DNA of 64,000 bases from Blasia pusilla. Its lineage: Eukaryota. The stretch is taken from the NCBI GenBank assembly GCA_050084515.1, contig CM114271.1, forward strand, positions 48,980,001-49,044,000, in the 5' to 3' direction. Positions within the stretch are counted from its first letter, which is position 1. Each line of letters opens with the position of its first letter. A program made the translations under genes and the position numbers. Below are positions 5,920 to 63,756 of this stretch, in pieces. The notes below the pieces were generated by a model. The model had not been told where the DNA came from. It saw only the letters and a list, made by a program, of their open reading frames with translations, and did no database searches.

Positions 5920-6055
5920 AGCTGTAGCTCCGCTCTTCGTTCAATCACTCTCAGGAATTCCCAAGCGAGCACTCGGTAACGAACAACATGCCAGTCTTGG
6001 GTCTCTCCCAGATACAGAGACGCGGAGCGAGAGATAGGCCACTGCTGCGAGAGGT

Positions 6056-16485: not shown

Positions 16486-17430
16486 GGCATTTGTGTGTTA
16501 GATTTCTTTGGTGGGATTAGCACTGGTTTGGTTTTTTGCGATGTTGCACGGTATTCTATCTGGAGATACGTGTATGTGGAGCGAGATGAGACGGCCTAGA
16601 GAGTCTCATCCCGACATATCGGTCAGTTGATGCGGAGATATCCTGAGTTGTTGCCACCATCAGCTATTCGTGGGTACTAGCGTGCTTTGCCGTCACACAT
16701 TGCATTGTTGGGGGCGCAGGACCTTGAGAGGGTTGGTCCTGTGGATTTGGTGATTGCTGGATGGCCATGCCAGGGTCATACACGTGTTGTTGGTGGTGAG
16801 GGATTACACGACCCTAGGTCTCGATTGTCTTGGGAGATGTCACGGATGTTACGACATCTTCAGGTTCATCAGGCGCGTGCTCCAACTTATATTTTGGAGA
16901 ATGTTCCATTGTTGGGTGACACTCGGACCCGGATGATGGCGAGTGTTCATGAGGTGTGGTCTTGAATTGGACCAGCAGTGTTGTTGGATGCAGCGCGAGT
17001 TGGCTTGCGTGCACATCGTCCACGCTTGTGGTGGACAAACTTGTTGCCTAGGGAGGTTCTACATCGAGCATATGATGCAGTGCAGCGGGATCCTTGCCTT
17101 ACAGTGGATAGTATCTTGGATACTGGGCGACTTTCTCAGGTGGTGAGGGTTATTGATTGGTCACCCATGGCAGTGGTGAACCGTGTGGGCCAGCCTAGGA
17201 TGGCACTACCCACATTTGTGAGTTTTCCCTCGTCACATGCCTACAGGGAAGGTAGTCCCGGGCTTGTATGGGATTCTCATGTGCGACAGTTGGTGGAGCC
17301 TAACGTTGATGAGAGAGAGCATGCGATGGGATTTGCTACTGGTGTGACAGCGGTTGCTTCCATTTTTGAGGCTTCACGTCGTCATGTGTTGGGTTAGGCC
17401 ATGGACTTGAATTGTTTGACTTGGATTTTG
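16486..17430 (+). pseudogene. C5 cytosine DNA methyltransferase domain (DNMT3-like) within pol of copy B
   Basis: In frame with the protease: motif I VLDFFGGISTG, II YVERD, IV DLVIAGWPCQG, VI YILENV, VIII AHRPRLWWTNL, IX ERE.AMGF, X RRHVLG*AMD. Disrupted only by point stops. Confidence 0.92.
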
Positions 17431-17712
17431 AGTCTTGGCATGGCCGAGCAGCGTCGACTTTGGACTATGTCTGTGGGTCTTCCACCCCTTGTGATGAGCT
17501 CGATGGCTACTGGGACGATAGAGGCATCGGCTGGGGGCGAGGAGAGTAGTATTTTGCATCCTTAGAGTAAATGGGATGTAATGGCTGGGCATGTGGAGTT
17601 GGTTGCTCATGCTTGTGGAGGAGTTATTTGCTCAGGTGATGGTGTAGCTAAGGGTGTGCTATCTTGTGAGGGGATTGCGTAGCAGCCAATTGAATCATCC
17701 TCTCTGTCTAGT

Positions 17713-19660
17713 GTGCCAATGGAGGAGACTTGGGAGCCATTACTTGGGCCCAAGCTTACGGGAGGTGAGAGACGACGCTTGACACAGTTCCTACGTGCTT
17801 ATAGGAGTTGTTTTGCCTTTAGCATGAAGGAGTTGGGTGCTTTGGTTGGACATGGTATACAGATTGATTTGGCTAGTGATACGCCAATCTTCCGTTGTCC
17901 CTACCGATATAGTGATATGGAGAGGGACCTGATTCAGAGTAAGACGTTGGACCTTTCGGAGGCTGGATTAGTGGAGTTGTCGCATGGAGAGTATGCATCA
18001 GTCATTGTCATGCCTGCTAAAAAGGATGTGCATGGCAACTACACGGATAGGCGGATGTGTGGAGATTACCGTCCTATCAATCGGTAGACCAAGGCTAATA
18101 GGTATGCCATGCCTACACCTGAGGAGATCTTTGATGTGGTGGGACAGGAAAAAAATTTCAGTACTTTGGATCTTCGGGAAGGATACCATCAGTTGCCGAT
18201 TCAAGAGAGTGATAAGGCCAAGACAACATTTTGGGGTGTCAACTCTCATGGCAAGGATTGTTTGTACCAGTGGAAATTCTTACCCTTTGGGTTGAAGAAT
18301 GCACCTGCCGAGTTTCAGAGAGTGATGGAAAGGATCCTAACGGGGTTGGATTTTTTTCGGTGTTACATTGATGATATCTTGGTGTTCGGTAACACGGTGG
18401 AGGAGCATCAAATACACTTGCAGATGGTGTTTGAGCAGTTGAAAGCTCATGGTCTACGTTTGCATCTAGGAAAGTGTAAGTTCTTCCATGAGGATGTTGA
18501 GTACTTGGGTCATGTGGTCTATCTAGGTGGTTTGGGAGTTCAGCAAGCAAAGATGGAGGCTACTGCACTTATTCCCCGTCCGGTAGATGTGAGTAGAGTT
18601 CGGGCATTCATGGGATTGGCGAATTACTATCGAAGGTATGTGAAGGGATTTGGTGCTATGGCAAAGCCTTTGAACCAATTGTTGAAATTAGATCAGGAGT
18701 GGCACTGGGGAGATGATCAGGAGAGAGCTTTGGTGGAGCTTAAGGCCCAGTTGGTGGCGGCGCCTATCTTGAGGAGACCTATCAAAAGGCGGCCATTTCA
18801 GTTACACATTGATTGGAGTAGGTTGGGACTTGGAGTGGTGTTGACACAACATGATGATGAGCACATGGAGTTTGTGGTGGCCTATGCAAGTCGTTCGAAT
18901 AGTGCAGCGGAGTCACGCTACAGTTCATATGAGGGAGAGTGCTTGGCAGTAGTGTGGGGTGTGGCACACTTTAGGTATTACTTGTTTGGCATAGAGTTTA
19001 CCCTTGTTACTGATCACCAACCGCTCAAGTGGTTGATGGAGTCTGACAAGCTTGCACGGTGGGCTCTTATCTTACAGGAGTATGACTTCCAGGTGGTACA
19101 TAGATCTGGAGTTGCCAACCTTGATGCTGATGGGTTGAGTAGGAACCCATGTACTAGCCAAGAGGATGCAACTGGGGCTAGATGGCGTGGCAAGGTTGAT
19201 GAGGAGATGGTGCCAGGTTGGCATGCATCCGCCTTTTTATGTTGGTTAGGAGTGGACTCTAGTATGGAGGACCACATGACATCTTACTCTAGTGAGAGGG
19301 TAGATGGCCAACCTTCAGATCCTAAGGTTGGAGATGGTGGTACGAATCAGCGTGATGTTCATGATGATGCGTTGGTGTTGGAGTTCCTACGTACCAGTAG
19401 GGTGCCAGGCATAGTGAGTGCCAAGGAGCGAGACCGTGTTCTTCAACGTGCTAAGAGGTATCGATTGGAGGGAACACATATTCTCTGTGTGTGGGAGGAT
19501 GGTAGAGTATGAGTAGTGCCGCATTTGGCTCAGAGAGAGCGCATTGTGCGACATGCCTATGAGGAGTTGGGACATTTTGGGGTAAAGCGTACGTATAGCT
19601 TACTCCTTGGTCAGTATTGGTGGCGTGGCATGCATACTCAGGTGCAGCAGTTGGTGTCAC
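17713..19660 (+). pseudogene. pol: Reverse transcriptase, RNase H and integrase N-terminus of copy B
   Basis: RRMCGDYRPIN, LDLREGYHQL, LPFGLKNAPAEFQ, CYIDDILVF, FMGLANYYRRYV, YSSYEGECLA, TDHQPLKWL, DADGLSR. Confidence 0.97.
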
Positions 19661-19663
19661 GTT

Positions 19664-20143
19664 TGTCACACCTGAGTAGCCGATAGGTCGAGATCTATCG
19701 TGGATAGGGCGTAGGAGCCAGCGGACTATCTTGAGTGTAACTTTGTCTCACGGTGTCGGATGAGGTTGAGGATAGGTCCACTATGTCAGGAACGTTGTTT
19801 CTGACAACTTTCATGTTGAGGTCTTTTACAATCGGGTGACTTGTTGACCAGGTCATCCGCCCCTGGTGACCTGTGCGCGCAAGTTACCAAGGGAAGGGCT
19901 TTTTTTAGGGGAAGAGCCTTTTGGCTCTTCCCAACCCTATATAAGAGAGGAAGATGGCTTTCCTAAGCCATCTTTCTCATGTTGGGCCGTTGGAGCACCT
20001 CCCTTGTATGTGTGTGAGCTAAGACTAGGGTGCTAGCGTCCGGATTCCTTGATAGCACAGGGTGGACAAGGCTCGATATGCCGATGTAGATTGAGGAGTG
20101 GAGTTTTAGGCCGGGTGTGCCGTTTTTACTACTCTTTATTTTT
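19664..20143 (+). repeat. 5' terminal segment (alpha) of copy C with TATA box and hairpin; PBS at 20144-20165
   Basis: TATATAA at 19938-19944; hairpin AAGATGGCTT-TCCT-AAGCCATCTT; perfect 22-nt inverted match between 19961-19982 and 20144-20165. Confidence 0.75.
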
Positions 20144-23100
20144 ACATGAGAAAGATGGCTTAGGATTGGTGGAAATTCGTTGTTTGCAGGTAGGCAAGCA
20201 AGTTGCCTTGGTCGGGAGCCCCTGGAGACGTGTGTGTGACGTTTTGTGTGTCATTAATCTGTTCGGAAGGCCGTGGGCGGAAGCGCTGTCCGTTTTTCTC
20301 AGATTTTGCAAAATCAGATGGGGGACAACAGCAAGGTGTAGAGCAGGTTGTGTCGGCAGGAGTAACGTCGTCTTATAGCTCGTGGAATGTCAGGAGTACC
20401 CAAGGAGAAGAGTTAGAGCTTGCAGCCGCCAGGGGGCTGTCAAGTAAAGCGTCCGGTCTAGGGTTAGGGCGCGGCGGCAACGGGCAGGAGCGGACGGGCG
20501 GCGACGGGCGCTGACGGGCGTGGAAGGGGGCGTGACGGGCGTGGACGGGCGCCCCCCTCCCTCCCTCTAACGTGGTAGAACGGACCATAGTCGGTCGGGG
20601 AGTTGTAGCGAACGTGGTTGGTAGGACGGACGAGGTTAGTCCGGCGAACGTGAGTTGAGATTTGCCCGACATGATTGGGAGCCGATCAGGGTGAGTCACG
20701 TTACATGCCGTGCGTGGGGATCGACAGAGGGGTTTGCGCGACATGATGTTTTTGGGGTGCGACAGGGCGTTGCGAGAGTTGACGATGGAGGGGCAGTGTG
20801 CATGATGTCGACGGGTTGTCCGCATCTATTGACGGGAGGATCGACGTGTTGGTCGAGGGGAGTGTTGTGTTGCGGAGATTGTCATATCATGTGGAGGAGT
20901 GCATGTTGACGGTGCAGCAGGTTGGAGGGCGTGATCAGGTTACCCATTCAAGTCCCTTTTCCCGCACTTGTCGTGTGTGATTGAGAGTGCTGGGTATCGG
21001 GTAGTAGCTGCTGCTAGATGGGTGTAGTGACGATGACGAGTGTAGATTCTTTTCATGTGTAGCATGTTGGAGGATATACGGCGGTTGCCGAGTAGGGGTC
21101 GCGTGTATGACCCGAGAGAGTGTCGCTAGGTTAGGTGAGTAAGTTGGGAGGCTCATGGTGAGCCCGAGTGTTGAGAGTGCGTGAGGCCGGGTATGTCATC
21201 ACGGGATTGATGTTAGCATAGGTGAGCTAGTGAGGCGTGTGGGAGACTCTCGGTGAGTCTGAGTGCTTGAGCGGGTGAGATAGGGTTTGTCATCACGGCA
21301 TTCTTCCAGGGTTCGGAAGAACGGGGTAGTGCGAGCAGTGGTAGTGGTGTGACACGGAGTGCAGTGAGATACCGAGGGGTTACCAATGAGGAGCTCCCTC
21401 GACATCCATCCGTGACTAGATCGTCATCACTGGACACTGGGTCTGGTGACGAGATCACCGACAGAGACAGTAGTACTTGGCAAGAGATGGACGACATGGG
21501 CCATCGGGGCATGCGTCGTTTCTCGGGTGCAGTGGGCACCATCGACTTAGATGATTTCATCCAGGAGTTTGACCATGGTGCGACTTCCAGGAGATACGGA
21601 CCCCGACACGGTTCAACCCTTTCATAGCATGGAAGGGGTTGTTCCAGCACTTGGAGGGTCCTCCGATGGATGACTACATGGAGTTTTGATCACTATATTC
21701 AGTAGAGATCGATGCTTGGAAGATGTATTGGGCTCTAGGGTATGTGTCCACTAGTGGTCGCGAGGCATATGATGGGATTGTGAGAGGAGAGAGACCCACA
21801 CCATCAGCCCGGAGACTAGATGGAGAGGAGGGCAGTGAGACAGGCGATGTGGCAGAGACCTCTGGTGGTAGAGGGCCACCCAGCTTCAGCCCCAGAGTGG
21901 AGTTCTTCCAACATTTGGGGAAGAGCTACCAGGGCGTACGCACCGACAAGCTGAAGAATCTACAGGATTTTCAGCGACGATCGGGTGAGAGTCTGAGAGA
22001 GGCATTCACACGCATGAGGAGGCTGATCATTGCTACGTTTGGAGTGATCGAGGCGATCGATCCTGTATTGAGTCTGGGATTCGGACCGAGAACTATGGAG
22101 GAGAGTCCGAGATGCAATGCTGATTCACACGGCGAAGCCCACATTGAAGGTGGTCTTTGAGTTGTCCGAGCGTATTGAGCTCAACATGAGTGAGGAGCAG
22201 GTAGTGACCGCTGGATTTTCTCGAGAGTCGACGGGTCCACGAGCGACGGTGACCCCACAGGTGCCACAGCGAGCACCAGTACCACGGGAGCGAGCAAGTG
22301 TGCCTAGAGAGCAGGGCGGGTACCGTGAGCCTATGAGGCAACGACCCGCACCTACATATGTTGCCCAACAAGGACCGATGTGGTCTTGTTGGACGTGTGG
22401 AGGGGCCCATAGGCACAGAGACTGCCCACAGCATGGGAGAGGACCACCAGCGCCTCCGATTGCTCAAGAGCCACAGAGGATGGCCCCACCACAGCACCAG
22501 TGTGACCATTGCCACAAATATGGTCACACTAGGGATAGATGTTTTGACCTTCGCCGAGGGGCACGTCCAGGTAGGCCGAGGGCCTGGGGGCGGTCGTCCT
22601 GGAGGAGGTCGAGGAGTTCTTCCTGGACGTGGTGGTAGAGGACCACCACCAGCCAGAGGAGATGGAGCAGGAGCACAAGAGCCGGCACTTCTCTCACCCA
22701 TCGATCAGTTGGAGCAGAGGATTGCTGGCATGACGATGATGTAGCTTAGGGAAGGCCCGGAGCTGCGAGCAGCTAGTGTGACTCCAGCTTCTACCTCTTA
22801 CCTTGACCCGGGTGAGGATCTCGCCAGTATGGGGTTTAAGTGTAGTGCAGCCTAGGTTGAGGCAGCTGCAGCGGTGACTTGGGGTGCTGCGAGAGGCACC
22901 GAGCCACCGAGAGGTGGAGTTGAGATTGACCCACCAGAGGGGACCGATGGGCGGTAGGCCAGGGTTCCACAGTCATTCACATTGTCGGAGGCACTACACA
23001 CACCATCAATGGTGCCTCGACGACCAGCGGTGCCTACATCTTAGGCACCTACGTCGACGTCATGAGGAGTTGGAGTGAAAACTCCTATGCCGGCTCGAGT

Positions 23101-24199
23101 GGAGTCAGTGTCGACCATAGTGTTGGAGGTGGCCACTAGAGTGAGTCAGACTCCACTATTTTCCCGCCATAGAGTTGGCGACGTTGGGAGTTGGACCAGC
23201 TGAGGTGTTTCGGCTGGCCGCCATGTTGTGTGAGCATGGAGAGATGACTGCTTCTTGTTCAGAAGTAGTTGAGGAGGTGGTGGACTTGCCCTCAGAGCCG
23301 GTGCTTGGGATGTTCCCCCACAGAGTCATGGCATACGGCGGCGGCGAAGTTGGTAGATACGCCAACTCGACCGACCATAGAGCGAGCAATGGTGACACCT
23401 GGAGTAGTGTTACTGGATAACCGAGCTGGAGTATTTCGCTTGGTTAATTTGACGGGGACAGTATACCACTCGCACCGCGTCCTACTTAATTCGGGAGCGC
23501 AACCCTTGATGTTAGGGAAGGCGGCGTGTTTAGCATTGGGGTTATGGAAGGCCGATATTGAGCCTTGTCCCTTCCACATACAGACCTCGATTGGGAGCGT
23601 GTCACCCACGCAATATATGACTCGACAGGAGATAGTTGTCAGAGTCTAGCCAGAGCATGAGACGGATAGTGCTATGGTGCGCACACGTGCGATTACAACA
23701 CCAGCTGAGTCGTACGATGTGTTGGTGGGGAGTACAGTTTTATATCCCCTAGGATTCATCCTTGACTTCTGGGAGGAGACCGTTGCTTATTGGCCAAGGT
23801 GTCGGTCAGGTGACGTCCAGATGAGTGAGTTACCCGTGCAGTTTGCGGGACGAGGTGGTCGATCACGAGGCAAGTCTGTGACCACATTGGCGGCTTTCAC
23901 AGGTAGTGTTAGCTGGCTAGGAGAGTTATTGGAAGGGAACGCACATGCGGAGGATGTCCTAGTAGCGGATAGTCCCACGGAGAGATAGGTCATGGCGGGT
24001 GTCTCTTCCCATATTGGCAAGACCTCTTCACCATTGTGGGGTACGACTCGAGAGCTATAGAGGCGTGCCGACGACCTCGTGAGGCAAGCATGGAGTCATG
24101 CTTTTATCCCGGAGCTACAAGAGTCACGTGGCGATCGGGCTCTTGGAGTGGAGACGATGACCCCACTAGATACCACACCTGTTGTGTGGCAGTGCCCAG

Positions 24200-25160
24200 A
24201 GGAGGGTGTTAGGGTGTTAGATCTCTTCGGAGGGATTAGCACCGGATTGGCTGCATTATTGTAGGCGGGCATACGGGTGCATCAGTACCTTTATGTGGAG
24301 AGAGATGAGTATCATTACGTCACATGGCGAGTATCATTACGTCACGTGGCGAGATTGGTCCAGAGGTATCCTGAGTTGTTGCCGGTATTTGCCGTTCGGG
24401 GATATCAGCATACACTACTTGCCGACAGCTCTTTGGTGGGGGCGCAGGATCTGGATAGAGTTGGCACCATTCACTTGGTGATTGGTGGATGGCCATGTCA
24501 GGGTCATTCATGAGCTGGCCGAGGATTTGGATTGCAGGATCCGAGGTCAGGGATGTTTTGGGAGATGCTGCAAGTAGTACGACACTTGCAGGAGAGTGAG
24601 ACATGTTCTCCAACGTACATTTTGGAGAACGTGCCATTGTTGGGAGACACTCGTATACGTGTGATGACGAATATGCATCAAGTGAGGTCTTGGTTGGGAC
24701 GTGCTGTGTTATTAGATGCGGCGAGAGTTGGATCACGTGCTCATCATCCGCGACTGTGATGGACGAACCTGATACCATCAGAGGTACTGAGTTGAGCATA
24801 CGATGGAGTCCACAGAGCACCACATCTCACAGTGGATGCTATTTTGGGCTCAGGGCGTCGATCTTAGGTGGTGACACGGGATGATAGACCACCGTTGGCC
24901 ATGGCCAATAGGGTGGGGGAGTTGAGGGCAACCTTACCTACGTTGGTGAGCTTCCCAGCATCCCATGCCTTTCGTCAGGGAGGGCCAGGCATGATTTTGG
25001 ATGAGGTGATTGGAGCATTGGAGGAGCCTACGACAGATGAGCGCGAGCGCGCCATGGGGTTCGCTACCGGTACTACGGCGGTGCCAAGGATGACTGAGGC
25101 ATCCCGGAGACAGGTGTTGGGGTAGGCGATGGACCTCAACTGTCTCACATGGATAGTCAG
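24200..25160 (+). pseudogene. DNMT3-like C5 methyltransferase domain of copy C
   Basis: VRVLDLFGGISTG, YVERDE, LVIGGWPCQGHS, YILENVP, SRAHHPRL*WTNL, ERERAMGF, RRQVLG*AMDL. Confidence 0.92.
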
Positions 25161-27099
25161 CCTAGGTATGGCTGAGCAGAGACGGATGCGAGTGTCATCC
25201 ATGCCGTCATGTCCACGAGTTGGACCATTGCCTACAAGGTCTGTACACGCATTGGTTGGGGGCGAGACGAGGAGAGATAAGCACCCATGGACTTCTTGGG
25301 ACGTCATTCGAGCAGAGAGTGCGAAGGCGGCTAGAGTAGCACATGTTCATTTTTTGGATGTGGAGCATGGTGTAGGAGGTCAGAGTGGAGTGGCTCTTGG
25401 GGAGGTGGCTAGGGTTGCTACATAGCAACCAAAGCCGGAGGTTGCGTCCTCTCCGAGTGAGGTCACAATCGAGACTTGAGAGCCTGTGATAGGTCTCAAG
25501 TTGATAGGAGGAGAGCGACGGTGAGTTCATAGGTTTCTAAGAGGGCATGTAAGTTGTTTTGCCTTCAGTATGAGAGACTTGGGTATGCTTAAGGGTCTCG
25601 GGATACGGATTGAGTTGGCTAGTGATACGCCGATCTTTCGTTGACCCTACAGGTATTCTGATATGGAGCGAGCCTTGATTCAAAGCAGGAGTCACGAATT
25701 GTTGGAGGTAGGACTTGTGGAGTTATCACATGGGGAGTATGCATCTACCATAGTCATGCCGGCGAAGAAGGATATGTATGGCAATTGGACGGATAGGCGG
25801 ATGTGTAGAGATTACCGTCCTATCAACCGACAGATGAGGTCACATCGGTACGCCATGCCTACTCATGAGGAGATCTTTGATGCAGTAGGACATGCGAAGA
25901 TCTTCAGTACTTTAGATCTCCATGCTGGCTATCATCAGCTTCCTATCAAGTTGGAGGACATCTCCAGTTCCACGGTTGAGGAGCATGAGCGACACTTGGA
26001 GGAGGTGTTTCGGTGATTGCAGTTACATGGACTGAAGTTACATCTACGCAAGTGCAGATTCTTTCAGAAGCAGATTGAGTACTTGGGACACACCATATAC
26101 CCAAGTGGGTTAGGCGTTCAGCAGACGAAGGTAGAGGCTATTGCACAGATTCCACGCCCTATAGATGTGAGTCAAGTCCGAGCATTTCTTGGACTGGGGA
26201 ACTTCTATCGACGGTATGTCAAGGGTTTTAGTGCGATCGCAAAGTCTTTGACCTTGTTGACGAGACTTGACCAGGTTTGGTTGTTGGGAGATGATCAGGA
26301 GCGAGCATTTCAAGAGCTCAAGGACAGGTTGACGTCCTCACCCATTTTACAGAGACCGGTTAGGGGTCGCCCATTCCCGTTACATACGGATTGGAGCATG
26401 TTGGGTCTAGGAGCAGTGCTTACTCAGAGGGATGACGAGGAGAGGGAGTTCGATGTGGCTTACGCGAGCCGATCGAGCAACATTGCAGAGGCAAAGTACA
26501 GCTCCTACGAGGGAGAGTGCTTGGCTGCAGTGTGGGCCGTGGCACATTTCAGGTGCTATTTATTCGGAAACCCTTTCACACTTATCATTCATCATCAGCC
26601 GTTGAGGTGGTTGATGGAGTCCGAAAAGCTTACAGGAAAGCTTGTCAGGTGGGCTCTATTACTACAGGAGTATGAGTTTGAGGTGGTTCATAGGCCAGGT
26701 CGGCTGAACTAGGATGCGGATGGGTTGAGTCGTAACCCATGTCCGAGTCAGAGAGACCACACAGGAGCTCGATGGCACGGAGGGAGTGATGAGGAGATGG
26801 TGCCCGGTTGGCATGCATCTGCCTATCTTTGTTGGTTGACTATGGCAGGTCAGCCACATGTGATGACTCCAATGGTGGGGTTGGATGATGAGTCTTTGGA
26901 TCCGGAGATTAGTGAGGAGGCGACACGTGGTCGTGATATCCATAATGACGTGGAGGTTGTGGAGTTCTTGTGCACTGGCGTCATAGCGAGTACAGTGAAT
27001 GCTAGGGAGTGGGATTGGATCCTACAGAGAGCCAGGAGGTTCAGGTGGGAGGGGACTCACATTTTGCGGGTATGGGGAGATGGTAGGATACGAGTGGTA

Positions 27100-28345
27100 C
27101 CTCATCCTTCCCAGCAAGCATGTGTAGTGCGATATGCCCATGAGGAGTTAGGATATTTTGGAGTAAAGCGTACTTACAGCTTACTCTAGGTTCAGTATTG
27201 GTGGCGCGGCATGCATACTAGGGTACAACAATTTGTGGCTAGATGTATGGTATGTGACAGAGTGCGAGCATCCTTCAATGCTCCCACTCCGCAGTTACAT
27301 CCTTTGCCAATTATGGGTTTAGGTTATCGGTGGAGTTTAGACTTTGCGGGACCTTTGCCATTGACGGGGCGTCATCATAGGTACGTGTTGGTCATGGTGG
27401 AGCATTTCTCCTAGACAAGGCGAGCGAGGGAACAGCTTATGCGTTTCTAGATCGTGTGCTTAGTCACTTTGGTGCACCGGCAGAGGTGTTGACTGACCAG
27501 GGTAGCGAGTTCAGGAGAGAGTTTCAGGCCTTGTGTGATCAAAGGCCGAGATCACCGCACCACGTCCAGAGATCATCTTGAGGCGGATGGGTTGGCGGAG
27601 AGAGTGGTACAGACGGTGAAGAGAGGATTGCGCAAGTATGGCTTGCAGTGGGGACAGTTGAGGGAGTGGGACCTACGGTTTCCATGGTTGGCTATGGGTT
27701 ATCGCTTTAGTCGGCAGGCATCCTTGGCGTCATTTTCACCGTACTTTTTGCTCTTTGGGAGAGAGCCAGATTTACCTGCAGCGATTCGATGTGACATGGC
27801 GGAGGTGTTAGATCTTGATGATCCAGATGTGTGGGTACAAGCATGTTCTCAGAGGGCAGAGGTTTTTCGTAGAGTTATGCCTATGGCCTTTGAGAACTTG
27901 CTATTGCCCAACATAGAGATACATTGAGGTACGCGACCATTCGTGGAGGAGGTTATCGTCCAGGGATTAGGAGGTTTCATCTTGGAGATTACGTGTATTT
28001 ACAGCAGGCGGCATCCACGACGCTAGATGTCACTGCAAGGCGCACGATCCTACGTGTGCGCGAGGCATTACCGACCGGAGTCCTCATGTTGGAGGGACGG
28101 GATGGTATGGTTTGGAAGGATCATGTGCGCAATTGTGCAGCATGTCATCTTCCGAACGTAGATGGGACGGTGGATGTGAGCTTGGCAGTGGTACCTGCAG
28201 GCTTGAGGTGTATGTTGTGCGGATCCGCGAGTGGTGCAACCACCATGCTGGTATGTGATGGTTGTTCTCGAGGGTGGCATATGTCATGTCTGACCCCCCT
28301 CTTGATGTGGTTCCCACGGGACGATGGATATATCCGAGATGTGTA
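27100..28345 (+). pseudogene. DDE integrase with C-terminal PHD finger (copy C)
   Basis: HEELG...CMVC zinc domain; WSLDFAG, LTDQG and ADGLAER catalytic triad; then CMLC-x11-CDGC-x4-HMSC PHD. Confidence 0.9.
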
Positions 28346-28386
28346 TAGGGTAGTAGGTCATGTCAGAGAGATGTGATATTTTCTAT

Positions 28387-28562
28387 CTGGAGTTGGGGGG
28401 ATCCAACTGCCAGCTAGGGGGGCGGTTGTGTGATCTCCATGTATATGTATGAGTTGATTTTTGTACATGTGTGGATCGACCCGTGTGCGGGGAAGATCGG
28501 TGTTGTGTGGTGTAGATGTGACCAGCGATGTATGTTGTGTAGCGATATGTATGCGCACGATA
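28387..28562 (+). repeat. Stem-loop, G-tract (PPT-like) and beta terminal segment of copy C
   Basis: CTGGAGTTGG...CCAACTGCCAG hairpin, AGGGGGG at 28416-28422, terminal CAGCGATGTATGTTGTGTAGCGATATGTATGCGCACGATA shared with copies D and E. Confidence 0.75.
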
Positions 28563-30254
28563 GCATCTACAGTTGGGGTTGTAGGAAGTAGAACTGTAGT
28601 AATAGGTGCGAAAAGGAAGCACAATGCTCTACATAACTGTTTAGTGGAGTACTATGCTGATTTCTCCTACAATACTGGATATCACAGCAAGCATCCGTAT
28701 TCAACAACATTGAAGGAAAGAATGTAGTTGGTAGGTGGATAGACAAACTTGAGGATAATTTCTTGTAGCATGGATCCTTAGGAGTTGTAGAAATGTGGGT
28801 AGAGTCCCTCTTGCAAAGAATCGATTGCCAATGTTGTTAGTTTGAAACGTGCAAAATTGCACCACCTTCAAGTTAAAGTTTTTCTAAAGCCATGGAAGTA
28901 TGTAGAACTGGGTTTTGAACAAGTCACAACATCTGAGTGGCAAAAGGCATGCCACGGAGCGACAATTACTTCTTGAATCAGACAGAAAATGAATTAGAGC
29001 AGCAAATGCCACAAGTTATGGATGCAAAAATGAGTTGGTGAATTAAGATTGCACCCGATAGGAGATCATATTAGCCACCTACGTGGACATGAAATGTTTT
29101 GAAGAGGTGCTCCGACCAATATGCACAGTCTCAACAGTAATCAAAGAGATTAGATGATAGAAACATAGTCTTAGGCTTTACATATTCTTATCTTTTGACC
29201 ATAGACTAGAGGAGGCTCTCAAGTAATCTCTATAATGCTCTAACTTTTGGTTGGTTGGTTTTCGAGGCAACATCAAACGCGGCACAAAGCAACACAAAAG
29301 GCTTGCAAACTACAATCCTAGTAGGAAGATAGACACAAAGAACACTAACCCAGGGCGAGTGCATAAGGATAGAAGAAGGTGCAAGCAATAAAGCTAGAAG
29401 ATACTAACCGCATTCGAGGGATAGCAAAGCAAGAACAACAAACGTGGCAATTGCATTTGAAGGGAATAGCAAAAGGAAGGCATGAACCTAAGTAGGTACG
29501 AGATAAATCTCCGCAAGTGTAAATGAGTGGAAACTAGACGGGGCACCTAGCAAAGAATAGACACGTCGCTAAGCAACGAGATGCTTTTGGGGACTAGAAT
29601 GCTAGTACATAGCAAGAGTCAATCACGTTATCTGAGGGGTGAGGAAGCAGAGTGCGAAATACTAGATTTGAGAGAAGAGAGGAACGAAGACGGAAAAGAA
29701 ATGCTAGTGTAGTATAAGGTGAACCAATCGTGTCTAGGTGAAAACTCTCCACCAACAACATCGAATTCTTCATCACACATGAGTTGAACAATTCCTGCCA
29801 AGATGGATGGAGGATCAATTGAGCGAGAGAGGAGAGGTATGAACGATCATCGACAATACCAAAGAGCACCAAGGGAAGAACGAACGAAGTGGCTCTGCTC
29901 GTGCGAGCAGAGCGTACTTGGGCTAGACATTCAAAACGTTGGCCGATGGTTGGGTCTAGTTGCCATCTCCTCACTATAGGCTAGAGATTGGCGATTATTT
30001 GAGCATTCATTGCAGCGGCCGAAGGGTATCCTCTGCTTAGAACCTTAGGAGACTCCGCATATGACTTGATGACACGTAGTGACAAACATGACATGGAGGG
30101 CCTACCCATGGAGAACGAAAATTTACGAGCCCCAAAGAGGTATATATGAGGAGACTTATTTGTAGAGGCTATTATGAGGATGGTGGATGAGAAGGATTTT
30201 CAATATGGGATGTGTATGCCCATCATATTGACACTTGTGAGATTGTCTTAAGCA

Positions 30255-36656: not shown

Positions 36657-39600
36657 GTTCCCTAGTCCCACACAGCAAATCTCTTGTCCTCCTGTAATCT
36701 CTGCCGCCCCACCGTCCCCTCTGCCTCCTCTTGTGTCCCTCACCCTCTCCTCCCGACGCCAGCCCAATTATTTCTCCCTCCGTTCCCCGTCCTCTCCTTC
36801 CTTCCTTCCTTCCTTCTCTCTCTCCTCCTCCTCTTCGTCGTCGCTATTCACACGATGAAACGCTAAACCGGAAGCGTGGCGAGCCGGAATAGGCGTGAGA
36901 ACGAAAAGAGTCACCGTATGAACAGGAAACTCTCGCGCTGGCGAAGCACGAACGAACGAGCATACATTGGAACTGGCTGCAAAGATCAAACCCCACCTCC
37001 ATACGCCTGTCTGAAAGGCACCCTCTTCCACAAACCAACCGAACTCGCTGGGCGATAAACCCAGAATTGAACAATCCAACCGAACACGTCTTCCGAGCAA
37101 TGTCCGGGGAGATCCGGGGTTACGAGTAATCCCCGGGAAAAACTAAAATTCCCGTCTCGTGGAAACTGATGCCGGTGCAGATCAGGTGGTTTCCGTTAAC
37201 GCCGGCGTCTCTCACATGCCGGGATTGTGCCGATCGCCGGCAAGGATTGGATGGAAAGTAGTCGCGTACGGGGGAATACGGGGGTTAACGGCCGTTTAGA
37301 CGTAACCAGGAACCGGAAATCAACTGGGAAGGATTCCACTTGCCGGTCCTGCTAGGTGATTGGTTAGGGTATGGACGATGGCATGGGGGGCAAAGAGTCG
37401 TAGATCTGCAATAGGGCTTACCCTAAGCCATACGATGGAAGACCGGACGGGTAGGGTTTAGAGAGGGCGGCTGGGTTCAAGTGGAGAGAGGACGAGAAGG
37501 GTATGTGGGTGGAGACCTCACCATAGAGGGCTATCCCTCTCATTCTCGGATCTATGAGGGCCTTATTGCATGGGCTAGCGTCACTCATTGACGCTGGCCG
37601 GTGAGCGACGCCGTTAGACCGGATCTGCTTCATCCTACGGTCCCAAATGTGTTTCTTCTAATCCGAATCGCAAGTATTTGACGGGATCGCAACGTTTCAG
37701 TGTGACTATTTTCAGAGGTATGGTCATTCACGCGCGAGGTGTTTTAGTTTACACCCCGAATTACGTCCGGACTGAGGGCCAGAGAGGGCACCAGAGCGAG
37801 TAGCCGGTCTAGGTGGGCCTAGAGATCGTGCACCAAGTGGTCCTGTTGGGGGACGAGGAGATGGAGTTGCCCGACAGGGTGGTGGAGCTGCCCATGGAGG
37901 GGGTAGAGTCCCACCACCTAGACACATCGAGGGAGATGCCAGGCGTGAGGCTAGGATGGCTGCTTAGATACAACAACTACAAGAGTAGATTGCCGCTATG
38001 GCATTGAGGTTACCCGATGGCGGATCCGTGGCATTCACATGATATGGAGCAGCCACAGATATGGAGGATCCTGGTTGGATGTGCAGGGTTGCCCAGATGG
38101 AGGCCGCCGCAATTGTGACGCATGGAGCAGCCATAGAGTTGGATCCACAGCGAGGGGAAGCGAGGAAACATATCAAGCTTCCTTAGTCTTTCACATTGTC
38201 CTAGGCGATGAGGACCCCATTGATGGGTCCTGATTAGAGTTCCCGGAGAGTTGGTGATGTTATTGGTGTGTAGGCACGGAGGGTAATGAGAGAAACGAGT
38301 GCGATGACTCCTATTGCTGATGCTCAAGAGGAGCATGTGTCGAGTACGATATCGGGGGCGGCCACGATGGTGTACCGTGCTTCGCTATTTTCTGTTTTCG
38401 ATATTATGACATTGGGAGGTACGCCCGGCGAGGTGTTCCGGCTGGCCGCTACATTATGTGGGCGTGGAGTTGGAGTTCCTGCATCACATTCAGAGGTGAT
38501 TGTAGAGGAGGTGATGGACCTACCCTTGGAGCGGATGCTCAGGCCGTCCGCGTCAAATTCATGGCAGGCTACGACTGCTAGGATGGCGGAGATGTCCGCT
38601 AGACCCACGATAGAGCGTGCCATGGCTTCTCCTGGTGTTGTGTTGTTGGATAACCAGGGAGAGGTCTTCCAGTTGGTAAGTCCAAGAGGTAGAGCTTTTA
38701 GTCCGCAGCGCGTCTTGTTGGATTCAGGAGCGCAACCCCTGATGTTGGGGTAAGCGTCATTCAGAGGATTGGTCTTGACAAGAGCCGATGTGGAGCGTTG
38801 TCCATTCCGGATACAGACATCCTTGGGTGGAGCAAGTACCACATAGTATATCACCCGACACGAGGTCTTGGTGAGGATTCGCCTGAGATATCCTACAGAT
38901 GAGTCCGTGGTGCGAGCCAAGGCGATAGTGATTGATGTAGCGTCCTACAACGTCTTCGTTGGTGGAGCAGTGTTTTCCCTGGATTATTGGGAGGAGTCAA
39001 CGTCCTATAGACAAAGATGGCAGTTAGGTGATGGGCGCCTTATCTCATCATCTATTCGATTCACAAGTGCAATGATCGAGCGACGGCCAAGAGAGATGGT
39101 GACCTTTGCAGCATTTAGCAATGCCATCACTTGGCCTAGTGATTTGATTGAGGGACATGTCCATGTAGAGGATACTCCCATACTTGAAATTTCTATGGAG
39201 AGGAGTGTCATGGTACCTGCATCAGTCCGTGGAGAAGAGGTGCCGCTTTGGGGCTCGATTGAGGAGCTTCGACGCTTAGCCATTGAGCATGTGCAGACCG
39301 CGTGGAGCTAGACGTTTACACGAGAGTGTGACGAGTCAAAGGAACCCCAAGTAGTCATGTCTTGGGTCACGTGATGGACCTGAACCGCTTGACATGGATT
39401 TTCAGCTTAGGAGTAGCTGAGCAGCGTCATTTGAGGATGTGACAAATCACAACAGTTGCGTTGGTGAGCCCTATGCCTACCGAGACGGTTGAGGCAGTGG
39501 CTGGGGGCAAGACCTGAGGAGATTGACACTCCAAAGGTGATCGGGAGAGACTCCCTTGGACTTCTTGGGATGTTTTGCAGGTACGCCAAGGGATGATAGC

Positions 39601-40473
39601 CACACCATCGAGCGTGGTTCTGGGTACTACACATGGAGATCCAATTTTGCAATTGGCTGTAGGGGAGCAGACAAGTTTTGTTGTCCGAGACGGGGTTGCA
39701 CCATAGCAACCACCGACACCCGCACTAGAGAGTCCTACTGTAGTCACAATGGAGACTTGGGAGCCAAATATGGGCCCTAAGTTGACAAGAGGAGAGCGGC
39801 GTCAGATACACCAGTTCCTTAGGAGTTATAGGAGCTATTTTGCATTTAGTATGCATGATTTGTGTACGTTGAAGGGTCCAAGGATCCGCATTGAGTTTTC
39901 GAGTGACATATCGATGCCCGTCAAGAAGGATGTGATTGATGGATAGGCGGATGTGTGGAGATTACCGACGTATCAATTAGCAGACGAAGTCTGATGGGTA
40001 TGCCATGCCTATTCCTAAGGAGATCTTTGATGCTATTGGGAATGCAAAGGTCTTCAGTTCGTTAGATCTTCGAGCTGGATATAATCAACTGCCTATCAGA
40101 TTGGAGGACATGCAGAAGACAACATTTTGGGGCATCGATCCTTACAAGAAGGATTGCTTATACGAATGGCGGTTGTTACCATTTGGGTTAAAGAACGCCC
40201 GGGCTGAGTTTCAGAGGGTCATGATAGGATCTTGGCAAGTCTAGAGTTTGCTAGATGTTATATTGATGACATTGTAGTCTTTAGCGTCATGGTTGAGGAG
40301 CATGGGCGACATCTAGAGGAGGTATTTTGACGATTGCAGTTACATGGGCTGAAGCTACATCCAGGCAAGTGCAAGTTCTTCTACAACCAGATTGAGTACT
40401 TGGGTCATACGATATACCGAGGTGACCTTGGTGTGCAGTAGATAAAGGTAGAGGCTATTTCACACATTCCACG

Positions 40474-41231
40474 TGTCGTGCGCATACACATCGCTACACA
40501 ACATACATCGCTGTAACCGAACACACACACAAACATGCACGATCCCATGCTAACTCATGGCATCCAAACACAGAGACGAGAATTACCAAAATATCTCCAA
40601 TATAGTAAGATCCAATCTCTCTCTATACCATCTCACACCATAGCTCTCAAAGGTGTGCACTCTCTTTCATGTCAAACCAAACCCACTCTCCTAATGAGAG
40701 GCTTGGCTTACATTCACAAGGCAAGGGACTGTAGCTCCGCCATCTCATGCCAAGAGGTTCAACAAAGAAAGAATGAGCTCTCAAGCTCTCTCTCCTTTAG
40801 GTATACCCCTCCCCTCTCCCAAGCTCTCTCCATGGTAACCTATTCTCCCAAGTCACCTCCTTGGCTCTTGACCTGATGTAGGAGGTCAAGGGCCACTTAC
40901 CAAAAATACAATGGTGATCACATACTCAAATGGTACTTACCTAAAATAGTAAGTTTCTCAATATGACTCCAAATGAGCCGAACGTGCTCTCTCAGGTTTC
41001 CCGGGGCCTGAACAGGTCATCCTCAACCTACTGAGGCTCTCCTCCACTACTCACGAAGGCGCTCTACTAGATCTCACCGATCTATCCTAAAAGACGTGAC
41101 AGTTGTCGTGCACATACATATCGCTACACAACATATATCACTGTCACCGCACACACACACAAACACGCACGATCCCATGCTAACTCATGGCATCCAAACA
41201 CAGATGCGAGAAGTACCAAAATATCTCCAAT
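40474..41231 (-). repeat. 3' terminal beta1-alpha2-beta2 block of copy D (beta1 41231-41104, alpha2 41101-40602, beta2 40601-40474)
   Basis: Two ~128-bp direct repeats flank a ~500-bp segment that is repeated at 46366-46868. The beta1/alpha2 junction reads GACA-AC-TGTCAC; a G-tract precedes beta1. Confidence 0.92.
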
Positions 41232-44200
41232 CGTCCCCCTAGCTAGTGGTTAGGTCCCTCTAACTCCAGATAGCCATTTATCCCTATCTACCACGACATA
41301 CATCTCTAGAATGCTAAGAGTAGAAAGGCCGGGTGCTCATGTGGCCCCATCGTTAGTCGCCTTCATGTCATCCATGTCACAGAAATAGTCGGAATCGAAA
41401 CTTGCCTAGTATCTCCTCTATGTACATCAGGGACACATCCATCGTCCTCGAGGAACCTTAGTGAGAGGTGGCGTCAGACATGCCATATGCCAACCTCTTG
41501 AACATCCATCATAGACTAACATCGTGGCGCACCACAAGCAGAACCACACAACATACAACGCAAGCGTGCAGGAACTACTGGTGAGCTCGGATCTACTGTA
41601 CAATCAATGTTAGGAAGGTGACATGGCACACAATTACGCATATGGTCCTTCCATACCATACCATCGCGTCCCTCTAGCAAGAGAACATCGGATGGCCAAA
41701 CGTCACGCACTCTGAGGATAGTGCGCACTTCAGTCACATCCAACATCTTCGGTGCCGTCTGCTACAAGTAGGCATAATGTCCTTGATGAAACCTCCGGAT
41801 AGTTGGTCGATAACCACCACCCCGAATAGTTGCATACCTCAACGTATCCCAATGTTGCGCAATCGCCAAGTTCTCAAATGCCATGGGCATCACTCTCTGA
41901 AACAACTCCGCCCTCTGAGAACATGCTCGCATCCATACATCTCGATTATCAAGGTCCAACACCTCATCAGCATCCCGACGAATGGCCGTAGATAAATCTG
42001 GCTCTCGGCCATAAAGTAACAAGTACGGTGAAAAAGACGCTAAGGATGCTTGCCTGCTGAATCTGTATCCCATCGCCAACCATGGCAACTGGAGGTCCCA
42101 ATCTCCTATGTGACCTCTCTACAAGCCATACTTGCGTAAACCCCTCTTCATCGTATGCACAAATCTCTCCGCTAATCCATCTGCCTCGGGATGATCTCGC
42201 AAAGTCGTGCGGTGGTCGATCAACGCTTGATCACACAAGGCCTAGAACTCACTGCGAAACTCGATACCCTACTCTGTCAACACCTCAGCCGGTGCACCAT
42301 AATGACTCAGCACTCTATCAAGGAAGGCATAAGCTACTCCCTCACTCGCTTTGTCAGGAAATGCAACCAACTCGATCCACTTCAAGACTTGCTCGACCAT
42401 CACCAACACATAACAATGTGACGCTCCGTCAAAGGCAAAGGTCGGGCAGTCGTGGAGTCAGAGCATTGAATGATGCTTGGACCCGATCACACACCATGCA
42501 TCTGGCAACAAACTGCTGAACGTCAGTCTGCATGCCTCGCCAGCAATACTGAATCTAGAGCAAGTTGTACGTCCGCTTCACCCCAAAGTGATCTAACTCC
42601 TCGTGGGCATGCTACACAACTCATGCTCTCTGTAAAGGATGCGGCACTATGCGTACTCTACCATCCTCCCAAACCCTGAAAATATGTGTTCCCTCCCAAC
42701 GGAATCGTCTTGCCCGCTGTAGGATCCGATCCCGCTCTCTGGCACCCACGGTGCTCGCAACGCTACCAGTACGAAGGTACTCCAAGACTACTCCATCATC
42801 ATGAATATCTCGGCCACCTATGGTCTCCTCACTGGCCTCGGGATCCAAGGACTCTCCAGTAGACCTCGCCATCGAAGTCTCCACACTCTGGCTTTCCATA
42901 GCCAACATGCCTAAATAGGCTGACGCGTGCCATCCTGGCACTGACTCCTCATCACTCTCTCCATGCCATCGAGCTCTAGTCGCATCTCGCTGACTCGGGC
43001 ATGGGTTACAACTCAACCCATCTGCATCCTGGTTGAGCGTCCCAAGTCTATGTACCACCTCAAAATCATACTCCTGCAACAATGGAGCCCATCTCGCAAG
43101 CTTCCCTGTAAGCTTGTTGGACTCCATCAACCATTGAAGTGGTTGATGATCAGTGATGATTGTAAAGGGGTTACTGAATAAGTAACACCTGAAATGTGTG
43201 ACAGCCCACAGTGCAGCCAATCACTCACCCTCATACGAGCTATACTTCGCCTCTACACCATTGTTCGAGTGGCTAGCGTAAGCCACCACGAACTCTCTAC
43301 ACTCATCATCATGCTGGGTGAGCACCGCTCCAAGGCCCAACATGCTCCAATCTGTGTGCAACTGGAAAGGACGTCCCCTGATCGATCTCCTCAAGATGGG
43401 CGCAGACGTCAACTTGTCCTTGAGCAATTGAAATGCTCAAGGACAAGTTGTGATCCACTTATGATCCACCTTGGTCAGCAAGGTCAGCGGCTTCACAATC
43501 GAATTGAATCCCTTGACGTACCGCCGATAGAAGTTCGCCAATCCCATGAATGCGCAAACACGACTCACATCTATGGGGCGTGGAATGCATGAGATAGCCT
43601 CTACCTTTGTCTGCTGAACACCAAGGCCCCCTGGGTATATCGTATGACCCAAGTACTCAATCTGGTCGTAGAAGAACTTGCACTTGCGTGGATGTAGCTT
43701 CGGCCCATGTAATTGCAATCGTCGAAATACTTCTTCTAGATGTCGCTCATGCTCCTCAACCGTGGCGCTAAAGACTACGATGTCATTAATATAACACTTA
43801 TCAAAATCCAGACCAACCAAGATCCTATCCATGACACTCTGAAAATCAGCCGGGGCATTCTTTAACCCAAATGGTAACAACCGCCACTGATACAAATAAT
43901 CCTTCCCGTGAGGATAGATGCCCCAAAATGCCATCTTCTGCCTGTCCTCCAATCTGATAGGCAACTGATGGTATCCGGCTTGCAAATCCATGAATTGAAG
44001 ACCTTTGCGTGACCAATCGCATCAAAGATCTCCTCAAGGGTGGGCATGGCATACCTATCGGACTTCGTCTGCCGATTGATAGGTCGGTAATCCCCACACA
44101 TCCGTCTATCCGTCTAGTTGCCATGCACATCCTTCTTGGTAGGCATGACAGTGGCAGATGCATACTCCCCATGCGACATCTCCACTAGTCTTGCTCCAAC

Positions 44201-44789
44201 CAAGTCCTGGCTCCTACTGTGAATCAGAGCCCTCTCCATATCACTGTACCTGTAGGGTCGTCGGAAGATCGGCGTATCACTCGACAACTCAATGCGGATC
44301 CCCGGTCCCTTCAGCGTACCCAAATACTCCATGCTAAACACAAAGCAACTCCTATAATTCCTGAGGAATTGATGTATTCGGCGCCGCTCTCCTCTTGTCA
44401 ACTTAGGGCCCATATCTCGCTCCCAAGTCTCCATCGTGACTATGGTAGGACTCTCCGGTGGGGATATCGATGGTTGCTATGGTGCAACCCTGTCTCGAAC
44501 AACAACACTCGGCCGCTCTCCTACAGCAAAATGCAAACTCTGATCTTCTCCTTGTGTAGTGCTCGGAACCACGCACGATGCTGTGGCTATCATCTCCTGA
44601 CGTACTTGCAAAAAATCCTAAGAAGTCCAAGGGTGTCTCTCTTGATCTCCCCTGGTGTGTAGATCTCCTCGGGTCTCGCCCCCAGCCATTGCCTCCATTG
44701 TCTTGGTAGGCATGGGGCTCACCAACGCAACCGCTGTGATCTGTTGCGATCTCATCCGATGCTGCTCAGCCACTCCCAAGCTGAAGATC

Positions 44790-45740
44790 CATCTCAAACA
44801 GTTCAGGTCCATTGCCTCACCTAAGACATGGCGTCGTGAGGCCTCTAATACAGACGGTACTGCCGTCACTCCTATGGGAAATCCCATCGTCCGCTCTCTC
44901 TGGTCGGCGTTGGGCTCCACCAACCTCTGAAACTAGTCATCCCAAACCAAGCAAGGACCGGCCTCCTTGTATGCATAGGAAGCGGGAAAACTCACAAACG
45001 TGGGAAAGGTTGCCCGCGGCCTGCCTACCCTTTTGACCACAGTCAACGGTGGTTGATCATCGTGCCACATTGCATGTGAGCGATGATTTGGATCCAGAAT
45101 GGAATCCACTAACAAATGGGATGGGCACTCCACTCTCGCATGCGCCCTCCGTAACACCATATGGGGCACCAAGTTGGTCCACCATAGACGCGGGCGATGG
45201 GTTCTAGAACCTACACTCGCCGCATCCAAGAACACTGCTGGGCCAATCCAGGCACGCACCTGATGAGCACTCGTCACCACCCGTGATCTGGAGTCTCCTA
45301 AGATTGGCACATTCTCCAGAATGTAGGCTAGAGAACGAGAATGGTGCTGCTGCAATTGCCGTAAGATCCTCAACATCTCCCAAAACAACGTGGATCGAGT
45401 GTCAAACAACCCGCTGCCTCGTTTAGCACTCGGTTGGCCTTGATATGGCCAACCGGCAATGACCAAATCAATGGTGCCTAACCGCTCTAAGTCGTGCGCC
45501 CCCAACAACAAAATATCCCTCGGTAGGGAACTCTGGTACCCCTGTACTGCGGACGTAGACCATAAGTCGGGAAAACGTAGGCGTAATTGCGCCACATGTC
45601 ATAGTAGATACGCCTCGCAACATCAACACTCTCTACATATAGGTACTGCTGCACTCGCACTCCTGCCTGCGAAACAACAGCTAACCCGGTGCTAACCCTT
45701 CCAAAGAGATCCAACACTCGAATACCCTCCTCCGGGATAC
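44790..45740 (-). pseudogene. DNMT3-like domain of copy D (catalytic PC mutated to PY)
   Basis: IRVLDLFGRVSTG, DLVIAGWPYQG, YILENVP, SRTHRPRLWWTNL, RERTMGFP, RRHVLGEAMDL. Confidence 0.92.

Positions 45741-60571: not shown

Positions 60572-63756
<3,185 letters not shown>

Follow-up and report, generated by a model that had tools for sequence, protein, structure and literature searches.

Cytosine methylation is the main weapon of host genomes against transposons, so a transposon that carries a methylating enzyme of its own appears as a paradox. The closest described system is KnitGypsy-Dnmt3 of the alga Klebsormidium nitens, in which intron-less, non-rearranged Dnmt3-type domains with conserved key residues lie in the Pol open reading frame (ORF) of a gypsy element with few copies, DIRS-like repeats and a Ka/Ks below 0.2 (PMC5890265). 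SymbioDIRS-Dnmt3 of Symbiodinium produced de novo CG methylation in yeast, and the complementary DNA (cDNA) of new copies was proposed as the target of the DNA methyltransferases (DNMTs) of retrotransposons (PMC5890265). Capture of DNMTs by retrotransposons has been reported repeatedly (PMC5890265; bioRxiv 10.64898/2026.05.21.726589), and two later papers, including the latter preprint, mention DNMT3 in retrotransposons of 'streptophytes', with no finer detail in the text available. Fusions of chromatin readers (Chromo, PHD) with transposons are given as background in another preprint (10.1101/2021.11.30.470311). A partial literature search returned no paper naming bryophyte copies of Gypsy-DNMT3 elements, and the available parts of PMC11982613, PMC9033089 and PMC6453930 hold nothing on such copies; supplements may already list them.

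We analyzed a stretch of 64,000 nucleotides from Blasia pusilla (assembly GCA_050084515.1, contig CM114271.1, positions 48,980,001 to 49,044,000), hereafter the window. With high confidence, we interpret it as holding six decayed, partly nested copies of a liverwort family of Ty3/gypsy elements with a pol-encoded DNMT3-like enzyme, related to KnitGypsy-Dnmt3. The kind of element has already been described under that name, and the land-plant host is one of the additions made here. A preceding sequence-only reading of the window had noted that DNMT-bearing retrotransposons were reported in charophyte algae and dinoflagellates, a precedent confirmed by PMC5890265.

The methyltransferase in the pol frame

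Using tblastn with Marchantia and metagenome polyproteins, self-blastn, reading of the junctions and the ends of sequencing reads, we mapped six decayed copies of one Ty3/gypsy-type family in the window, named A to F and nested in part; F and E are the halves of one element, the sixth, with D inserted. Three-frame translation located the motifs of cytosine-5 methyltransferases (C5-MTases) in four of them. On the plus strand, copy B has motif I (FGGISTG) at 16507-16527, motif IV (GWPCQ) at 16759 and motif VI (ILENV) at 16891, and copy C has the same three motifs at 24226-24246, 24487 and 24619. Copy D, on the minus strand, reads FGRVSTG at 45705-45685, GWPYQ at 45454-45440 and ILENV at 45322. 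In copy A (plus strand), motif I was not found, motif IV reads GWPFI at 11453 and ILENV stands at 11583. The DNMT3-like domain spans 16402-17499 in B (16441-17442 in our list of the parts of this copy), with motifs I, IV (PCQ), VI (ENV) and VIII, 24100-25248 in C (24160-25170 in the corresponding list) and 44612-45753 in D, where it contains one frameshift. With stops translated as X, the Pfam family DNA_methylase (PF00145) exceeded its cut-off of 22 bits in three of the six stretches (27.8 bits in B, 35.9 in C and 24.9 in D), with no match in the second frame of D or in either frame of A. The best database relative has E = 5e-173, which places the match far beyond chance.

Pfam scans of the 9-kb frames, read together with the protease motifs, place five parts of copy B in one frame: the protease (LLDSGA), the DNMT, the reverse transcriptase (RT; RVT_1), the zinc domain of the integrase and, before it, RNase H. 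The CCHC knuckle lies upstream in the frame shared with the DNMT. In copy C, the protease, DNMT, RVT_1, RT_RNaseH and Integrase_H2C2 likewise share a common frame; the rve match is weak, and the PHD match is partial and in a different frame. The Ty3/gypsy pol set of aspartic protease, RT, RNase H and H2C2 plus DDE integrase is present by Pfam and protease motifs in B, C and the intact relative P0264, accompanied by the gag zinc knuckle (CCHC); the order in P0264 is CCHC, protease, DNMT, RT, RNase H and integrase. The copies accordingly carry an intron-less Dnmt3-type C5-MTase in the Pol frame. Because the domain is in frame in the diverged copies B and C as well as in intact polyproteins elsewhere, it is not a nested insertion, and the C5-MTase is part of the pol frame between protease and RT. 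Neither repeats nor target duplications were found around the domain.

A profile built from nine domains and searched against solved chains matched DNMT3A first (4.6e-21) and then DNMT3B and 3C, followed by DRM (7.5e-11), M.HaeIII (1.6e-6) and DNMT2 (about 1e-3). We also examined an AlphaFold model of P0001, an intact relative of 368 amino acids (aa) that is 76% identical to B, with a mean predicted local distance difference test score (pLDDT) of 92.4. Its best matches listed among solved structures were all DNMT3A/B/C, with target TM scores of 0.82-0.86 to catalytic-domain chains, and it aligned to them sequentially over about 325-335 columns. The sequential alignment with DNMT3A indicates that the motif order is not permuted as in DRM. 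Motifs I-IV-VI-VIII-IX-X are collinear with the catalytic Cys in B and C, which does not hold for D or A. Across 56 relatives, the catalytic Cys is the sole invariant column, and the ENV and His-Arg-x-Arg stretches are near-invariant. By the ranked matches to solved chains and by the predicted fold, the domain appears nearest to DNMT3A/B/C. Animal DNMT3 enzymes carry PWWP and/or ADD readers beside the catalytic domain, though not universally. Neither module had a Pfam match in B, C or the polyproteins of five relatives, in which a PHD finger follows the integrase instead.

The sequence-only reading had described a Gypsy-type element with a C5-MTase between protease and RT, in frame with the protease in B. 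Translation returned the motifs where that reading had placed them, the frame of B runs from LLDSGA through the integrase zinc domain, and Pfam supplied the full Ty3/gypsy set. It had also stated that A retains only remnants of IV and VI, as we found, and that B, C and D keep the motif set, which stands for B and C and fails for D with its damaged motif I, Cys-to-Tyr change and frameshift. Two refuting outcomes that it had named, absence of a PF00145 match and a consensus lacking the catalytic Cys, did not come about, since PF00145 matches and the Cys is invariant in the 56 relatives, and the nested insertion with its own target duplication, which it had considered fatal, is contradicted by the shared frame in diverged copies and intact polyproteins. 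The resemblance to DNMT3 and the unpermuted order, read at the time from motif wording, accord with the ranking of DNMT3A/B/C ahead of DRM and the bacterial enzymes and with the predicted fold.

Nested copies, split repeats and decay

Copy A (8841-11766, plus strand, by tblastn) is an old remnant that extends from gag into the DNMT, of which the N-terminal half is present, and ends at the start of copy B. Copy B (11767-19663, plus) opens with TGTCATG of terminal repeat A1 at 11767 and is truncated at 19663; its gag starts at 13794, its zinc knuckle lies at 14823 and its protease at 15754, followed downstream of the DNMT by RVT_1 (18043-18516), RNase H (18706-19083) and the integrase zinc domain (19528-19659). 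Copy C (19665-28562, plus) begins with TGTCAC of A1 at 19665 and has its full coding length: gag from 21486, zinc knuckle at 22501, protease at 23482, RT at 25960-26097, RNase H at 26287-26673, integrase at 27109-27542 and PHD finger at 28209-28298. Its B-unit ends at about 28562, and A2 and B2 are missing. B lies inside A, C lies inside B, and D splits F and E. The tblastn match to P0254 stops at residue 939 in F and resumes with residue 940 at 46874 in E, so F and E are two halves of one plus-strand element. The 5' half, F (37701-40473, by tblastn), comprises gag and protease, a C-terminal DNMT remnant (39356-39574) and the N-terminal part of RT. The 3' half, E (46873-50011), holds RNase H, integrase and PHD up to 49063, then B1 (49248-49366), A2 (49380-49888) and B2 (49893-50011). 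A C4HC3 PHD finger follows the integrase in C, in D (41421-42238) and in E (48275-49060).

Copy D (40474-46868, minus strand) is a nested insertion with TG..CA ends, flanked by a 4-bp target duplication, CACG (40470-40473) and CATG (46869-46872), whose sole difference is a CpG-to-TpG change; it splits the RT codon run of F+E exactly at residues 939|940 of P0254. Its layout is A1, coding, B1, A2, B2, with A units of about 500 bp (89.7% identical) and B units of about 128 bp (92%). In its own orientation, A1 lies at 46868-46365, an inverted protease fragment at 46353-45757, DNMT to PHD at 45753-41421, B1 at 41231-41104, A2 at 41101-40601 and B2 at 40601-40474. The 5' coding part of D is rearranged: the protease fragment (45757-46353 on the plus strand), inverted between A1 and the DNMT, shares 87% identity with the protease region of F and probably arose by recombination between the two inverted elements.

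The A-coding-B-A-B repeats were found in D, at the 3' end of E and in the metagenome loci L066 and L039. We surveyed 25 metagenome loci of at least 11 kb, ten of which hold both the gag start and the PHD end. L066 has the full arrangement, with A of 342 bp at 92% and B of 113 bp at 94% in a whole element of about 9.1 kb, and L006 and L046 have the A pair only, L006 ending inside A2. Neither a repeat search nor a sensitive blastn of the flanks found plain long terminal repeats (LTRs) around C, owing to the split-repeat structure and the truncation of C after its B unit. The ends of the elements are split direct repeats (A-coding-B-A-B) and not plain LTRs. The coding strand is G- and T-rich, with a GC skew of +0.2 to +0.3 on the plus-strand copies that is reversed on D (10000-30000 and 40000-46000), a strand bias belonging to the family.

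All copies are heavily decayed. The numbers of stops on the aligned lengths are 30 on 2418 nt in A, 11 on 4458 nt in B, 26 on 6522 nt in C, 13 on 3978 nt in D, 14 on 2082 nt in E and 16 on 2307 nt in F; frame changes occur in every copy, and C falls into seven blocks of high-scoring segment pairs with the frame changed six times. The DNMT of B has four stops (16597, 16678, 16963 and 17395), and the protease Asp of C has become Asn (LLNSGA). The F+E element is without the DNMT core corresponding to P0241 residues 842-1178 (about 340 codons with motifs I-VIII, the gap lying at 39308-39356), which was either deleted after insertion or was already absent from a DNMT-less derivative still able to spread. 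B and C differ at about one third of their bases. In both B (17395, TAG) and C (about 25140), the Gln codon of the LGQAMD motif is replaced by a stop; it looks like a parallel change, and CAG to TAG would fit in B. The ratio of observed to expected CpG is 0.37-0.76 in the element copies (0.37 in A) versus 0.85 and 1.01 in two host genes, with TpG/CpA in excess, the usual decay of methylated repeats.

Relatives, selection and transcription

Database searches matched 127 proteins of similar length. The named ones are all from bryophytes (Calypogeia fissa, Sphagnum species, Marchantia polymorpha and Riccia sorocarpa, 49-78% identity), and the remainder come from metagenome or run assemblies. Among longer proteins, there were 81 matches, some of them to Marchantia models (1150-1330 aa, 65-77% identity) and some to more distant polyproteins of Haematococcus and Chromochloris (34-44%); cluster look-ups added Scenedesmus, Hariotina and Closterium sp. 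NIES-54. A profile search of 1.84 billion representatives gave 12,831 matches at E <= 1e-3, cellular methyltransferases included, and 451 at E <= 1e-30. In the Protein Atlas, the matches were confined to generic DNA-methylase clusters (Streptophyta, phages). No Klebsormidium protein was among the database matches or the 20 clusters looked up, lengths of 642-1115 aa having not been searched.

To survey the layouts, we located the positions of six domain seeds in every collected protein, and 144 proteins with matches had at least 1100 aa. The DNMT follows RNase H or RT in 93 of the 144 and directly precedes the integrase in 13 more; in 35, it lies directly after the protease or before RT. The other three have neither layout (one protease-DNMT-integrase, one RT-DNMT, and one protease-RT-RNase H without a DNMT match). 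By Pfam, P0268 represents the order RT, RNase H, DNMT, integrase and PHD. Among named proteins, the order with the DNMT after RNase H is found in chlorophytes, and that with the DNMT before RT in Marchantia, Closterium and the window copies. A PHD finger (PF00628) after the integrase occurs in Marchantia and chlorophyte relatives as well, and P0288 from Chromochloris zofingiensis has a G-patch domain between DNMT and integrase. We built trees from the 86 proteins with both a long DNMT and RT-RNaseH, plus B and C, by quick searches; the trees are unrooted, and proteins with only one of the two domains were excluded. In each tree, the ten type I copies, in which the DNMT precedes RT, all lie to one side of a branch, whose SH-aLRT value is 99 for the DNMT and 96 for RT-RNaseH. 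New with respect to the described system are the relatives in bryophytes (liverwort and moss) and Closterium and the second order, RT-RNase H-DNMT-integrase-PHD, in chlorophytes. Further additions are a PHD finger following the integrase, ends made of split repeats together with a target duplication of 4 bp, and the two layouts that track both trees.

Comparison of B with C gave a dN of 0.28, a dS of 1.85 and a dN/dS of 0.15 for the DNMT, and 0.25, 1.79 and 0.14 for RT-RNaseH; with dS saturated at about 1.8, the value of 0.15 is approximate. The methyltransferase appears to have been constrained as strongly as the replication enzymes while the B and C subfamilies diverged, in agreement with the long selection on the motifs that the sequence-only reading had assumed. 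When every in-frame copy of the window and of the metagenome loci was included, the median dN/dS was 0.49 for the DNMT (42 copies, 775 pairs) and 0.35 for RT-RNaseH (17 copies, 88 pairs), both raised because decay after insertion inflates the ratio.

Reads of three RNA runs and one DNA run with a common species label were mapped to 3000-22999; for copy C, the run index contained no RNA run. Copy B is covered on the sense strand in all three RNA runs (depth 1-67 over 11.7-19.7 kb), compared with a depth of 20-154 and spliced joints on the gene for fructose-1,6-bisphosphatase (FBPase), used as control. The three runs gave no RNA on copy A, where the DNA depth is mostly 0-21, and almost none on the 5' part of C. 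The RNA reads on B are 95-99% alike to it and agree mutually against B at many sites, and where they differ from B, the majority of the DNA depth carries the same non-B letter. Since the RNA letters are those of the family majority and not of B, the transcripts come from sister copies of B. At the stop of B at 16597, C is the letter of every minus-side RNA read (13/13, 9/9 and 10/10 in the three runs) and of the one plus-side read that run X20 and run X21 each have, and C makes up 8229/9964 of the DNA depth. Ends of RNA reads continue past 19663 into integrase and past 11766/7 into the B-unit. The DNA run yielded 123,388 contigs on this 20-kb stretch, and the summed DNA depth reaches 10^4-10^5 over B versus about 8 on the host gene, a figure that is not a copy number. 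The B-like family is very abundant in the liverwort, and there are signs that this subfamily is transcribed.

The control gene, for chloroplast FBPase, lies at about 3000-5940 on the minus strand and is expressed. Its exon 1, including the transit peptide, is 76% identical over the full length to that of Marchantia paleacea and 70% to that of Riccia sorocarpa; in other plants, the exon aligns over the mature part only. This pattern identifies the host as a liverwort related closely to Marchantia, and the extension to a land plant foreseen by the sequence-only reading is borne out. Its RNA reads are spliced across 3447-3751, 4256-4905 and 5127-5435, and some minor joints point to a small alternative exon (4520-4567). 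At 3183, 3882 and 5838, the window has a letter that no RNA read shares, so the RNA came from another strain or individual. An alpha-tubulin gene with several exons occupies about 60700-63800 on the plus strand. An AT-richer stretch holds two 228-bp repeats (31937-32164 and 32176-32403) that are 100% identical and 239 bp apart. Pfam gave no match on 28.4-37.7 kb in two of the three plus-strand frames or on 55.5-58.5 kb in all three.

Possible roles of the enzyme and comparison with known systems

The gag-pol frame encodes gag (CCHC), protease, the DNMT3-like C5-MTase, RT, RNase H and integrase, with a PHD finger at the C-terminus. We tentatively propose, as one possibility among several, that the enzyme is made within the polyprotein, accompanies RT and integrase, and has as its substrate the newly made DNA of the element or the site of insertion; the PHD finger might steer integration by reading histone tails. 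The sequence-only reading had supposed that the enzyme would be cleaved from the polyprotein, packaged and directed at the new cDNA or the target site, a hypothesis already put forward in PMC5890265. A wider picture, which we regard as doubtful at present, is that Gypsy-DNMT3 might be an old green-plant lineage and no peculiarity of Klebsormidium, with one layout in streptophytes (Closterium, liverworts, mosses) and the other in chlorophytes, here multiplied to a very high copy number and transcribed, and that its catalytically competent DNMT3 could form part of the land-plant methylation machinery, marking its own copies and perhaps host DNA.

Several observations weigh against our interpretation. 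None of the window copies is intact, and no protein can come from them; the catalytic Cys is gone in D (Tyr) and in A (Phe). The missing core of F+E may mean that the domain is dispensable, unless it was deleted after insertion. Stop-free copies are few (6/42 for DNMT and 3/17 for RT-RNaseH), an ORF of at least 400 aa spanning motifs IV/VI was found in only 7 of 80 metagenome loci, and the saturated dS weakens the estimate of selection. Flanking A repeats were found in just four of the ten long loci with gag start and PHD end, and none in the other six. Kinship with KnitGypsy-Dnmt3 is judged by the architecture and the structure of the repeats and not by K. nitens sequences, and the Klebsormidium domain gave no detectable methylation in a yeast assay, which the authors called inconclusive (PMC5890265).

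Other explanations have to be weighed against these readings. It is hardly credible that the methyltransferase stretch lies within the elements by chance and outside pol, either as part of a host DNMT3 gene or as a nested insertion of its own. Heavy nesting and rearrangement of the elements make chimeras possible in principle, yet the domain keeps the same frame and place in B and C despite their divergence, is present in intact polyproteins such as P0264, has no flanking repeats or target duplications, and the type I copies stay together in both the DNMT and the RT-RNaseH trees. We also consider it improbable that the domain is kept for methylation of RNA or a primer, as a particle scaffold or as a spacer before RT, and not for DNA methylation. 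The SymbioLINE domain, like that of Klebsormidium, produced no DNA methylation in yeast, RNA methylation was raised by the authors for the LINE case (PMC5890265), and Pfam matched neither PWWP nor ADD here, the modules that host DNMT3 carries. However, the catalytic set of a DNA enzyme is kept, with the motif IV Cys invariant and the ENV and RxR region nearly so, the predicted fold matches DNA-bound DNMT3A/B over the whole domain, and DNMT2, which acts on tRNA, matches far more weakly (about 1e-3 versus 5e-21).

A further explanation, which we hold to be somewhat unlikely, is that the enzyme has host chromatin as its main target, in trans, or silences its own family, rather than marking its own cDNA. 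The very many B-like and C-like contigs, sense RNA of B-like copies within an order of magnitude of the host gene, and the CpG depletion with TpG/CpA excess would all suit it, and the discussion in PMC5890265 raises both trans action and self-silencing; with so many copies, the enzyme would then contribute appreciably to the liverwort methylome. However, CpG decay is typical of any methylated plant transposon and says nothing about who methylated, and the transcribed copies may not be intact, only one of the four DNMT stops of B (16597) being checkable in the reads. Finally, bryophyte elements might have captured DNMT3 independently of the Klebsormidium element, their likeness being convergent. 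The acquisition in K. nitens was placed 'in the K. nitens lineage', such captures recur in retrotransposons (PMC5890265; bioRxiv 10.64898/2026.05.21.726589), and the domain takes two pol positions within green plants. We think this unlikely, because the unusual A-coding-B-A-B repeats are combined with the gypsy set in both (figure legend in PMC5890265), type I copies occur in the zygnematophyte alga Closterium as well as in liverworts and mosses, and they form one group in both trees.

If the elements are related to KnitGypsy-Dnmt3 as we interpret them, the system might help to approach the paradox. The published plant-lineage case concerns one alga with few copies and no activity in a single test (PMC5890265), and the role of the enzyme would be much easier to study in a land plant whose copies are very numerous and transcribed. 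Candidate roles to ask about include camouflage of new DNA, self-restraint and interference with the methylation of the host. Liverworts of the Marchantia type have intact relatives and are open to transformation. The two domain orders and the PHD finger of the integrase show that such chromatin toolkits are assembled modularly.

The elements resemble KnitGypsy-Dnmt3 in the gypsy set, the intron-less collinear Dnmt3 domain in Pol with its key residues, the A-coding-B-A-B repeats and purifying selection (Ka/Ks below 0.2 there and 0.15 here), and differ in the land-plant host and in a family that looks far more abundant than the few copies of K. nitens (PMC5890265). They share with SymbioDIRS-Dnmt3 the Dnmt3 domain in Pol, split repeats and two domain orders side by side (PMC5890265). 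However, the latter is a dinoflagellate DIRS element with a tyrosine recombinase, whereas the liverwort elements have an H2C2 and DDE integrase; Pfam found Integrase_H2C2 and rve in the copies and relatives instead of a phage-integrase domain (the DIRS-type tyrosine recombinase). The DDE integrase and the 4-bp target duplication of D set the family apart from DIRS. Host DNMT3A/3B/3C provide the best sequence and fold matches and have collinear motifs, but identity is only about 20-22%, PWWP and ADD are absent, the domain is embedded in a polyprotein, and the P0001 model has about 80 extra residues in an N-terminal linker and a loop at about 262-305. Plant DRM has a related catalytic domain (E 7.5e-11), but its motif order is permuted, and the liverwort domain has no such circular permutation. 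The chlorophyte Gypsy elements of Haematococcus, Chromochloris, Scenedesmus and Hariotina share the DNMT at 34-44% identity, a related RT-RNaseH and the PHD after the integrase; they differ in placing the DNMT between RNase H and integrase, and in the DNMT and RT-RNaseH trees alike the branch separates them from the type I copies. Chromoviruses are gypsy elements with a chromodomain after the integrase. They likewise bear a chromatin reader at the integrase C-terminus, which is a chromodomain there and a PHD finger here.

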